Shown in pieces: positions 19,328-23,470 of a stretch of DNA of 64,000 nt. The notes beneath the pieces were generated by a model, which did no database searches, was not told the origin of the DNA, and was given only the letters and a program-made list of their open reading frames with translations. How positions within the stretch are numbered: the stretch's first letter is position 1; the number at the start of each line of letters is the position of its first letter. A program made the translations under genes and the position numbers. Source of the stretch: Giardia intestinalis (taxonomy: Eukaryota); assembly GCA_000002435.2 (NCBI GenBank), contig CM018793.1. The stretch is one strand, 5' to 3'.

Positions 19328-21055
19328 GCCTTCAATTTCTTTTTAAATAATGTCCGCAATAAAGGGACATCTCGCAGCAGCGTCTGTTGATATATCGTTA
19401 CCAGACCTCTTGTTCCCAAGTAAGAGGCGCAGGTTGGTTCTAATCTGCCATTGCCCACTAGGGGCAACAGAAAGCAGATGGGCACACAGCCATCCCTGCT
19501 CTTGCCGATGGAGTTGGCCGTAGAGTGCTCACATCCAATCTCAACAAAGATTGGACGTGTCATAATGGTTTAGAATTTTAGTAACATTTTTATGCACACA
19601 CTGAAGGATGAGGGCCACGCCTACATACCTCGCTACTGAAGTGCTGCAGGCGCTATATCCTATGCTACGACGTATAGGAGAGGCAGGGGCGACGGACAGA
19701 GGATAGAGTAGCTCAGAGGCCCCTCAGTCGAGTGAAAGGCTGGCCACGGGCACGGGTTATAGCCTGGGTACTCCTTGCAGACGTGTATCGGGATCAAGTG
19801 TAGCATTGCTAGGGCCACATTCCAACGCGTCTGAGGTTGCTTGACGAACACGCTGCTGCACGATTTAGCAGAAACTACTGCGACCTTCAGTGAGCCTTTG
19901 ACACGTGTCTTGTTAATTGCCAGGTTTGCGCGCCTTAGCAATCCGTTGGAAGTGGGCGCACAGGAATGTTGTATGATCGAGGAGATAAACGGAGCTCTGG
20001 TTAGCGAGGTGGGGCGGGCCCAGTAGTCCCGCATACCCTAGAGATGGGCGGGATTTTGGAGGAGATCCTAGGTCCGAACCCAAAATCCGAGATTCGGATG
20101 CCATAGTTCTGGCGGGAAAGGAGAGCTTCGTGCTTCCGGTTCGAGGGCCACCGTCCCGCCTTTCACACTGCCCTTCTAGAAATTTTCATTCCCTTCACTC
20201 AATCCCCGCGGGGTCAGCTACTGTCTGGCAAGCAGCTCCAAGCTCACCATCTATGCTACAACGCACGGATCTTTTGTGATGATAACAGTGATGTGATAAA
20301 ACTAATGAGGTGCTATGGCTCGACGGTCAACACTGGGTGTGGGAGCACTGAGGAGCAGGAGGCCTTCTTCCTGGCCGGTCGAAGGAGCCCCCAGGGCAAC
20401 GGAGGGCTGAAGCCAGTGATGGTACTAATCACTCGCCACGCTGGTTGAGATGGACCCACACGTGACTCATGTGAATCCCTCGACAGGCAAGTCGGGATCC
20501 TTGGGGTGCTTGGCTGACAGAAGCAGACTGAGTCCTGGCTACCCTAATCGGCCGGAGGAAGGGGAGGTCTTAGAAAACACTGCGAGAAGCACAACAGATC
20601 CCAAGAGGATAGGGCAAACCTTCTTCTTCTCCCACGGGGATCTAGGACATCCGGTTCTCGGGTCTCGGACGGTGAGCGGGAAGCATGCTCAGGGAGGCGA
20701 TGACTCGCATGGAAAACCTGTTCGGACAGCAGTTGACAAGCTAAATTCAGTGAAACAGAGTAAGTGAGTGGCTCCTCTCCTGCTGTGTCACGATAGAACG
20801 GACGCTGCTTGGAAGAACAGCCAGCAGGCACACTCCTCTGCACACAGTGGGACCGCGATAAGGCAGACTGATAAGCCAATAATGCAAAAGTCATTCACAT
20901 AGCATTGCCGTGGGGCATGATGTCCGGTATGCAATAAGCACCACCTCACAGTGCACGCACACGCCGGCAAGCTTATGCGGCCATTACATAGACTTGGAGT
21001 GAATGAGCGATGTGACGCTCGTGGAGGAGCTGATGCGCTTGCCTCTACAAAGGAA

Positions 21056-23470
21056 CTACCAGCACAGGAAGCCAACCAGGCTCCCAATCACAATGACCCC
21101 GGCCACCGTCCCTCCTGCGATCGCCGCCGTTCTCTTCTTGGCCAGCTCCTTGGCTGAGACACAGATGTCCTTCGTGAGAACCGCGTCGAACTCGCACATG
21201 CACACCCCCTGGTTCGATGAGGCCCTGGCACCGCACCCCTCTGCACACGTCCGCTGGTCTACTTGGACGTTGTGGCCCGAAGTGACACACGAGAGGCAGT
21301 TACCCGACTCATTGCAGGCAGCACACGACGGCATGTCAGGAGGACACTCGATTGGGAGCACACACTCGGATCTGTCCAGTGCCGGTAGGAAGCCCCGCTC
21401 GCACCAGCACCTCCGCACGCCGCCGGGCACCTCTCCCACCACCTTGTCCCCGGTGCACTCCTCCAGGCACGACTGCCCGTCCAGGCTCACGAAGAGCTCC
21501 CCCGCGCACTCTGTGCAGAAGGAGGCATGCCCGCAGGCCTTGCACCCCGGAGTGGCGCAGGGCAGGCACGCGTCTCCGTCTGCGTAGTACCCGTCCACAC
21601 AGGCGCCGGGGTCGACGCAGCTTCCGGTGGTGGCACCCGAGGCCCTCTTCAGGAGCTTGTCAGAGGGGCACCTGGTGCAGCGGCCGGGGCCAGGGGCGGT
21701 GCACGCCAGACATGTCGGATCGCACTCCAGCAGCTTTCCATCGGGCGATATCCCGTACCCCTTCTTGGTCGTTGTGCACTTTCCGTTTGACTGCTTATCA
21801 CAAATAGTGCTTCCTGGATAGTGTGCCTTTGTGTAGCAGCCCCCGTTCATCAGGAAGGCACTAGAGGAACAGGTGGTACAGACACCGTTCGCCTTGCTGG
21901 TGCAGTACGCGTCCCTTTGTGTGTTCAGAATACACACCCCGTTGAACGGATACGTGCTTGCGTCCTTGCAGCGCGTGCAGTACCTGCTGCCGTCGATGGT
22001 GATGCCGCACTCTGCACACTCACTACCAACAGAACACTGGCTAACGCAGTCTGCACTCTCGCTGGAGGCGATCGAGAAGCTTAGGATCTTGCCAGGGCTG
22101 CACTGCTGGCAGCCGGTTAGTGTGCCATCCTTGCAGACAGCGCACGAGTCCGTACATGGTGTGCAGGTTCCGGAGCTGTTGTAGAGGCCCATCCTGCAGA
22201 TGCACCGGCACGACAGTATCTTGGTTGAGCTACTCTTTTCTACTATCTCTGTGCATGCTCCTTGGGTGTCTCCGCTGCAGCTTTCACTGCAGGACTTCCC
22301 GTCCACTCCTAGGTACCCTGCCGAGCACCGCGTGCAAGTGACAGCACCGCTGGCATAGTTACACGTAGCACAGCCAGAGATGCCACCGTTTGTAATATCG
22401 CCACACAGATATCCATTTTTATTGTTATCGCCATTCTTAGAGAAGATCCATTTGAAAGCACTATTCCATTGTTCACAGGCATTTGATCCAATTCTTGAAC
22501 AGAGTCTTGAGCTAATATGGGCGTCCTCGTCGTAGCAGCCGCCGTAGAAGAGGAAGGACTTCGCAGAAGCGGGACAGGCCGTGTATAGTCCCTTAGTTGG
22601 ATCCTTTGTGCACTTAAAAGCGATCTCTTCAATAGATGGATTTTCCTTGATAAGAATGCATGCTCCGTTCCTGGGTGCGTATGATGCATTTGCGCACTCT
22701 TTGCAGATAGTAACATTATCTAGTTCGTACTGGTTGGCTTCTACACAGATGGCAAGTCCGGTTGAACTGTGCCGACTATAACATCCAAGCTTATAAAGTA
22801 AATGTGTCTTGTAGCATGACGTGCAGTAACCATTGACGCAATTGTGAGGCCCTTTGGCTTGGCATTGATAGTCAATCGGATAAAAATGTCTATCCTCGGT
22901 AGTATAGTGACACCTAACACACAGAGCGATGCCTATTTTATCAGTGATGGGGGGAAGGCAGTCTGAGCACCCAGAGGCGCCCTTGTACCCATTGAACCCG
23001 ACCGTATCGGAGCACAGAATGCACTTCTCAACTGCACCCACATCTGGATTGGTAAAGACATACCTTTCAAACTTACTTTCAAAGCATTCAGTACACACAC
23101 CATTCGATGCTTCAGAGCACAAAAAATTGCCCAGATTTCTGTCCTGTGCTGTTGTAATTGTATAGCAGCTGCCATAGAATAAAAATATGTTTGTTTCCTG
23201 TTTGCATGCAATACACCGAGTCGGCGATGCAGGGTCATCCGGAGTGCACGGAGAGGAGCTAGCTCCTGGGTATTTCTGGCATTTTCCATCTATTGGAACA
23301 TACCCAGGAACGCACTGGGTGCACAATTGATCTGATCCTAGTAAGATACATCTATCCTGGGCGCAATTCTCCTGCTTGCCATCACATCCCACGCCGAACT
23401 TGTTGTAATACACATCTCTTGAACTTTTGCAAAGAGAAGCAAGGAGAGCCAGCGGCAGAAGGCCGAGCAT
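21056..23470 (-). CDS. High cysteine membrane protein (HCMP); ORF ends in an amber codon at a position that is W in the VSP consensus tail
   Basis: Signal peptide MLGLLPLALLASLC and an 804-aa Cys-rich ectodomain with FLFYGSCY/GGCY and CXXC motifs. C-terminal TM helix IAGGTVAGVIVIGSLVGFLCW then TAG. The same frame continues FLCRGKRISSS... (see findings). Confidence 0.75.
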   Translation of the reverse strand: MLGLLPLALLASLCKSSRDVYYNKFGVGCDGKQENCAQDRCILLGSDQLCTQCVPGYVPIDGKCQKYPGASSSPCTPDDPASPTRCIACKQETNIFLFYGSCYTITTAQDRNLGNFLCSEASNGVCTECFESKFERYVFTNPDVGAVEKCILCSDTVGFNGYKGASGCSDCLPPITDKIGIALCVRCHYTTEDRHFYPIDYQCQAKGPHNCVNGYCTSCYKTHLLYKLGCYSRHSSTGLAICVEANQYELDNVTICKECANASYAPRNGACILIKENPSIEEIAFKCTKDPTKGLYTACPASAKSFLFYGGCYDEDAHISSRLCSRIGSNACEQWNSAFKWIFSKNGDNNKNGYLCGDITNGGISGCATCNYASGAVTCTRCSAGYLGVDGKSCSESCSGDTQGACTEIVEKSSSTKILSCRCICRMGLYNSSGTCTPCTDSCAVCKDGTLTGCQQCSPGKILSFSIASSESADCVSQCSVGSECAECGITIDGSRYCTRCKDASTYPFNGVCILNTQRDAYCTSKANGVCTTCSSSAFLMNGGCYTKAHYPGSTICDKQSNGKCTTTKKGYGISPDGKLLECDPTCLACTAPGPGRCTRCPSDKLLKRASGATTGSCVDPGACVDGYYADGDACLPCATPGCKACGHASFCTECAGELFVSLDGQSCLEECTGDKVVGEVPGGVRRCWCERGFLPALDRSECVLPIECPPDMPSCAACNESGNCLSCVTSGHNVQVDQRTCAEGCGARASSNQGVCMCEFDAVLTKDICVSAKELAKKRTAAIAGGTVAGVIVIGSLVGFLCW

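Follow-up and report, generated by a model that had tools for sequence, protein, structure and literature searches.

At the 3' end of GL50803_114617, a high cysteine membrane protein (HCMP) gene of Giardia intestinalis (G. duodenalis) WB, an amber codon stands where relatives of the gene carry a tryptophan, which raises the question of whether this stop is real and what has become of the tail encoded beyond it. The gene lies on the minus strand of a 64,000-nucleotide stretch of contig CM018793.1 (GenBank assembly GCA_000002435.2), referred to here as the window, in whose numbering coordinates are given unless another contig is named; its identifier, on NC_051860.1, was taken from Table S1 of the preprint bioRxiv 10.1101/2022.03.07.483299. 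It is considered highly probable that the codon is a genuine nonsense substitution and the gene a young allele that has lost its tail and stands at the beginning of pseudogenisation. The truncation is already known, and the same gene and the same observation appear in two earlier papers: Davids et al. 2006 (PMC1762436, Table 1) list ORF 114617 with the transmembrane segment 'TAAIAGGTVAGVIVIGSLVGFL' and the tail 'CW', and the preprint (section 1.1, Table 2) gives the chromosome as continuing with FLCRGKRISSSTSVTSLIHSKSM after the stop; it ascribes this to one nucleotide change in UGG, giving UAG or UGA, and remarks that such genes 'might also represent pseudogenes'. New with respect to those papers are a syntenic ortholog from isolate DH that carries TGG, the equal ATG-to-TAA length of the two genes, a divergent patch with sharp bounds, and the coding-like manner in which the tail has diverged.

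The list of open reading frames and its translation give an ATG-initiated, cysteine-rich frame of 804 codons on the minus strand (23470..21059, or 23470..21056 with the TAG), whose C-terminus IVIGSLVGFLCW closes in ...GSLVGFLCW before the TAG at 21058..21056. Past the TAG the same frame stays open for 23 codons (21055..20987), reading FLCRGKRISSSTSVTSLIHSKSM, and closes with TAA at 20986..20984; a preliminary description of this stretch had reported SLVGFLCW-TAG, 23 in-frame codons and then TAA, which is accurate to the base. The 804-aa product is identical in sequence to XP_001704473.1 (RefSeq), KAE8306022.1 (GenBank) and A8BWB7 (UniProt). The features concerned are as follows.

21056..23470, minus strand: annotated coding sequence of GL50803_114617, HCMP Group 4, 804 codons plus TAG (open reading frame list, exact sequence identity, Cys content, PF03302).
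21059..21130, minus strand: C-terminal transmembrane segment TAAIAGGTVAGVIVIGSLVGFLCW, residues 781-804 (hydropathy, 72/72 nucleotides identical to DH, Davids 2006 Table 1).
21056..21058, minus strand: premature amber TAG where the invariant CWW motif has its second Trp (21057 is A, against G in DH; WW in 28/28 motif-bearing relatives).
20987..21055, minus strand: 23 in-frame codons, what remains of the Group-4 HCMP cytoplasmic tail (14/23 against the closest family tail; peptide also in the preprint).
20984..20986, minus strand: ancestral stop TAA of GL50803_114617 (position of the DH ortholog's stop; final 15 nucleotides identical).

In the 23 codons after the TAG the gene's own Group-4 HCMP cytoplasmic tail survives as a relic, and the gene originally ended at the TAA. 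The comparison set consists of 28 other fetched proteins with the motif GF[LR][CR]WW (WB paralogs, members from isolates DH, GS and P15, and metagenome fragments, with a few variant-specific surface proteins, VSPs, included); every one has WW at the end of the transmembrane segment, the window protein alone breaking off after the first W. In 16 of the 28 (10 distinct sequences) WW is followed by a tail of precisely 23 residues, examples being FLCRGKRIGASPSTTALVRPKSV (WB 114042), FLYRGKRIGASLSTVGLVQSKSM (DH), FIFRGRRIDASPSTMTLISSKSM (WB 112828) and FLCKTKHAGVSSNTTTLIRSKSA, which is recorded only as Giardia duodenalis and probably belongs to assemblage B. The post-stop peptide has the same length as the closest family tail and is identical to it at 14 of 23 positions; chance does not account for this likeness, since among 100,000 shuffles of the peptide the best reached 11 matches and none reached 14. 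After WW the Group-4 tail follows the pattern F-L-C/Y-R-G-K-R-...-S-K-S-M, and Group-4 and VSP tails both start with CRGK. The preliminary description, which had measured the truncation against the VSP consensus, was right that CRGK persists downstream; its yardstick, the five-residue VSP tail CRGKA, is replaced by the 23-residue Group-4 tail, because the post-stop peptide matches the latter in length and pattern.

The TAG of WB is a derived, lineage-specific change from TGG (G>A at 21057) in the second Trp of CWW, at the cytoplasmic end of the transmembrane segment, since the DH ortholog has TGG and WW is invariant among the motif-bearing family members. The DH contig AHGT01000113.1 is collinear with window 23703..14985 at 94.7% identity over 8.7 kb, and the collinearity takes in the downstream 348-aa gene at equal spacing. 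The DH ortholog on it, ESU34952.1 (234..2720 of the contig), is an intact frame of 828 aa with TGG at the position of the WB TAG codon, and the distance from ATG to TAA is 2487 nucleotides in both genes. The single G-to-A change at the second Trp that had been proposed beforehand is supported by this comparison across isolates, in which the syntenic gene reads TGG, not TAG, and the downstream tail pattern is kept in the family. The DH contig ends 233 nucleotides upstream of the HCMP start.

Membership of the family is clear from composition. By the criteria of Davids et al. 2006, HCMPs, or CRMPs, are proteins of 400 aa or more with a Cys content of 10% or above and 20 or more CxxC/CxC motifs, type I topology (an N-terminal signal peptide and one C-terminal transmembrane segment) and a C-terminus other than CRGKA; GL50803_114617 has 804 aa, 93 Cys (11.6%), 23 CXXC and 4 CXC. 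The N-terminus MLGLLPLALLASLCKSS is hydrophobic and kept in orthologs, as judged by hydrophobicity and comparison, and the Kyte-Doolittle peak windows fall at residues 784-807, with a clear hydrophobic C-terminal segment at residues 781-804. The C-terminus is of the HCMP kind in that it is not CRGKA, the frame ending in ...FLCW and the ancestral tail being CRGKR...SKSM. The gene fails the VSP tail test, with no exact CRGKA at its C-terminus, and the extended VSP polyadenylation signal ACTTAGRTAGTRAAY is not found after the stop; AGTRAAY is absent within 260 nucleotides of the TAG, where the sole near-match is TGTGAAT at 20899. Pfam PF03302 is matched at 107.6 bits against a cut-off of 31.4, a domain common to HCMPs and VSPs that does not discriminate between them. 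Group 4 was judged by close relationship to 114042, 114089, 112828 and 114930 and by a common tail type; GL50803_114617 falls in the same 90% cluster as the paralog P0043, whose tail is that of 114042, and 114617 is also assigned to Group 4 by Davids et al. 2006 (PMC1762436, Table 1).

The tail also holds a short patch that is divergent from the DH ortholog and bounded on both sides.

21130..21059, minus strand: transmembrane segment, 72/72 nucleotides identical to DH.
21058..20999, minus strand: tail patch, 33/60 identical to DH (27 mismatches), AHGT01000113.1 2646..2705.
20998..20984, minus strand: last 15 nucleotides including TAA, 15/15 identical to DH.
20983..20784, minus strand: next 200 nucleotides of the 3' flank, 195/200 identical to DH.

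The first mismatch of the patch is the A of the TAG. The HCMP coding region (21056..23470 against AHGT01000113.1 234..2720) is a mosaic of blocks of 81-100% identity, and the flanking DNA is mostly 93-100% identical; given flanks only a few percent apart and the mosaic coding sequence, the patch is probably a short recombination or gene-conversion tract rather than the product of decay after the stop. DH may be the converted side, as its tail version, FLYRGKRIGAS.STVGLVQSKSM, is widespread, being found also at a second DH locus on AHGT01000010.1, in P0046 and P0047, and in WB P0057. No donor of the patch was found within the window by blastn-short and tblastn, which matched only the transmembrane segment of the neighbouring VSP. 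Overall, GL50803_114617 and its DH ortholog show a ratio of nonsynonymous to synonymous divergence (dN/dS) of ~0.31 (dS 0.20, dN 0.063). In the codons of the tail, WB and DH differ by ~12.8 synonymous changes on ~17 sites and by ~13.2 nonsynonymous changes on ~52 sites (pS ~0.74, pN ~0.25); because this divergence is of the coding type, with pS far above pN, it implies that the two tail versions would have diverged under coding constraint, that the WB version was coding during most of its existence, and that the stop arose late in comparison with the tail, a qualitative reading given 23 codons and saturated synonymous sites. A quantitative dN/dS of the tail was set aside on account of this saturation and the small number of codons.

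The other DH locus, AHGT01000010.1 1661..6906, carries a second, divergent VSP/HCMP gene pair; the 5' half of its HCMP and the region upstream match the window (22693..24500) at 93.8%, whereas the 3' flank shows no relationship, a pattern suggestive of segmental duplication or of exchange between loci.

Translation would end at the TAG, and the cytoplasmic tail would be lost in full, its basic cluster CRGKR included; the earlier claim to this effect, that CRGK is lost with the tail, holds at the level of the sequence, with termination itself predicted. The product would be a type I membrane protein with a putative signal peptide, a Cys-rich ectodomain and a transmembrane helix, and without a tail, CRGK or a basic juxtamembrane cluster; it would probably still be inserted via signal peptide and transmembrane segment, in this case without positive-inside residues, which the preprint finds in the basic tails of every other CRMP. 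In the VSP tail CRGKA the Cys is palmitoylated and the Arg citrullinated (PMC6115752), modifications documented for VSPs only and not for HCMPs, and the preliminary description of CRGK as a target of both is to be limited accordingly. The mRNA of GL50803_114617 exists, and its protein product is putative: in Table S9 of the preprint, WB clones show 11-25 transcripts per million (TPM) in the sense direction and 6-34 TPM in antisense, and Peirasmaki et al. 2020 give a value of 1.2 for 114617, which they count as an HCMP with differential expression upon metal-ion chelation. Peptides for 114617 are absent from Table S13 of the preprint, a re-analysis of several PRIDE data sets with peptides for ~80 CRMPs, which is absence of evidence only; the Group-4 paralogs 112828, 114042 and 114930, as well as 114470, are listed there with unique peptides.

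As expected of a young, unitary pseudogene, the gene carries a disabling mutation relative to its ortholog and paralogs (TAG against TGG in DH and WW in 28/28). Other WB copies of the family are frameshifted or truncated (P0042, P0012, P0054, P0057 and P0064), and P0042, a 792-aa 'High cysteine protein', loses its frame just before the transmembrane segment; these members, which lie outside the window or were not located in it, show ongoing decay of the family. Because the family recombines often and has decayed copies, and because no peptides are reported for 114617, the gene is most likely a recent tail-less allele that has just begun to turn into a pseudogene, rather than one for a specialised tail-less protein.

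Several observations weigh against that status. Neither loss of expression nor a further lesion accompanies the stop: sense transcripts are present at 11-25 TPM, a level like that of other family members and compatible with a functional tail-less protein, and the 804 codons hold zero additional stops or frameshifts. Unique peptides are recorded for 114470, a CRMP truncated in an analogous way, so that proteins of this kind can be produced without a tail. According to PMC3656445 and PMC6115752, VSPs reach the plasma membrane without CRGKA and the tail is dispensable for surface localisation in most experiments, so that loss of the tail need not abolish localisation. Finally, if the DH tail version is the converted one, as it may be, the DH codon does not, strictly speaking, testify directly to the state of that ancestor in WB.

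Much of this can be read in favour of a functional, maintained tail-less HCMP, in which the truncation would be tolerated or even advantageous and anchoring would rely on the transmembrane segment, without palmitoylation, citrullination or basic tail signals; the intact 804-codon frame with its hydrophobic N-terminal leader and transmembrane segment, and its transcription, fit such a protein. This alternative is nevertheless rather unlikely, as the truncation is found in neither the DH ortholog nor any of the 28 relatives, 114617 is missing from Table S13 while ~80 CRMPs appear there, and with the tail go the basic residues through which every other CRMP conforms to the positive-inside rule.

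An allele-specific nonsense codon, with TAG in some of the four genome copies of the two nuclei and the rest encoding 828 aa, would also explain the assembly, since Giardia trophozoites are tetraploid, the assembly gives one consensus, and a minority G allele is compatible with the data considered here. It is distinctly improbable, however: one 804-aa sequence is recorded in UniProt, RefSeq and GenBank alike, the allelic heterozygosity of WB is reportedly very low (<0.01%; Morrison et al. 2007), and the WB-type tail occurs in no protein of a 5.8-billion-protein collection. When proteins were searched with the read-through C-terminus for a TGG allele with the WB-type tail, all that came up were family fragments whose tails are of other types; JGI metagenome contigs, scanned twice for the exact pattern of the codon and the unique sequence following it (variable base set to N), gave 0 matches, and an exact-protein look-up in the contig index found neither the 804-aa product nor the paralog P0043. 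Very improbable, too, is a combined form in which the TAG is partly suppressed, or heterozygous between nuclei, and WB makes both a tail-less and a full-length, CRGK-bearing HCMP; if true, tail-dependent signalling or raft association would be switched by one codon, the full-length form being palmitoylatable.

Programmed or leaky readthrough, or decoding of TAG as an amino acid, would restore the tail in a fraction of the molecules, and the open frame after the TAG with its preserved tail pattern would suit it; a precedent for TAG decoding exists in related diplomonads (Hexamitinae), which reportedly read TAA and TAG as Gln (Keeling & Doolittle). The gene shows neither an apparent stimulatory 3' context or structure nor a conserved leaky stop: the context TAG-UUC-CUU fits no known readthrough motif such as UGA-CUAG or UAG-CAAUYA, the RNA after the TAG is not more structured than shuffles (fold z = -0.44), and DH has TGG. 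Moreover, TAG terminates seven other long open reading frames in the window, and a literature search turned up no report of readthrough in Giardia, so that this explanation is scarcely credible. The 804-aa records (A8BWB7; XP_001704473.1, version.1; KAE8306022.1) go back to WB assemblies built in 2007 from Sanger reads and in 2020 from long reads. An error of sequencing or assembly, with G as the true base at 21057 and a normal 828-aa HCMP, would need one base difference before a perfectly open downstream frame, and the preliminary description had listed it as an option; it is equally hard to credit, given the identical sequence in the three records, the tail given as 'CW' as early as 2006 (Davids et al. 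2006, PMC1762436, Table 1), and the inspection of the chromosome by the authors of the preprint, who found the stop.

Further features lie around the gene.

20893..20899, minus strand: TGTGAAT, the nearest polyadenylation-signal-like heptamer, 1 mismatch to AGTRAAY, ~85 nucleotides beyond the TAA.

This heptamer is a candidate for the functional polyadenylation signal of GL50803_114617, and the paralogous DH locus on AHGT01000010.1 has a perfect AGTGAAC at the matching place. The use of a polyadenylation signal as support for the ancestral stop was dropped, as no perfect AGTRAAY lies close to the TAG or the TAA. Two plus-strand antisense open reading frames, 21003..21587 (194 aa) and 21352..21807 (151 aa), overlap the 3' end of the HCMP and are probably artefacts of GC-rich coding sequence, although antisense transcripts of 114617 are recorded at about the same level as sense ones (bioRxiv 10.1101/2022.03.07.483299, Table S9). 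Downstream, the minus-strand frame of 348 aa at 18281..19327, which DH conserves (AHGT01000113.1 4378..5424), contains a striking Cys-Asp run, CCDCDSCDCCCYCDCDCDCDCC, together with several hydrophobic segments; its TAG stop overlaps the polyadenylation-type signal AGTAAAC. The neighbouring VSP is a plus-strand gene at 24414..26315; the mechanical open reading frame, 24174..26315, begins at TTG, and the true start is likely the Met at 24414 (MFEKIIFGIAILQVVWA..., 633 aa). Its C-terminus is GLVGFLCWWFICRGKA, as had been correctly read in the preliminary description, and CRGKA-TGA is followed by CTTAGGTAGTAAAC, a match to the extended VSP polyadenylation signal.

The finding has little import beyond annotation and represents an ordinary step in gene-family turnover: the appropriate annotation of GL50803_114617 is that of a Group-4 HCMP whose premature stop is derived, hence either a tail-less variant or a candidate young pseudogene, and not that of a distinct protein type. 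Since WB has intact paralogs and DH an intact ortholog, the gene could serve as a natural control for the role of the HCMP tail in trafficking, palmitoylation and positive-inside anchoring. The tail patch would add one more example of short-tract recombination shaping the Cys-rich gene families of Giardia.

Among known systems, a close parallel to the truncation is GL50803_114470 of WB, an HCMP of Group 6 that is likewise truncated at the end of the transmembrane segment by a stop in a Trp codon, with its tail (WFIGRRKA after the stop) still in frame (bioRxiv 10.1101/2022.03.07.483299); it differs in its group, in a VSP-like tail of five residues, in having unique peptides, and in lying outside the window. 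With VSPs, GL50803_114617 shares PF03302, a CXXC-rich ectodomain, a very similar transmembrane segment ending in GFLCWW, and CRGK shortly after that segment; however, the tail of a VSP is exactly CRGKA and is accompanied by the extended polyadenylation signal, as in the neighbouring gene from 26313 onward, whereas the ancestral tail here is CRGKR plus 14 more residues and lacks that signal. The intact Group-4 HCMPs (WB 114042, 114089 and 112828; DH ESU34952.1 and ESU38735.1; members from P15 and GS), which are 61-88% identical to GL50803_114617, have the same ectodomain architecture and transmembrane segment ...VGFLCWW, followed by a 23-residue tail of the form F-[LI]-[CYF]-R-x-[KR]-[RH]-...-S-K-S-[MVIA]; they retain TGG TGG and this tail, whereas GL50803_114617 stops after the first Trp.

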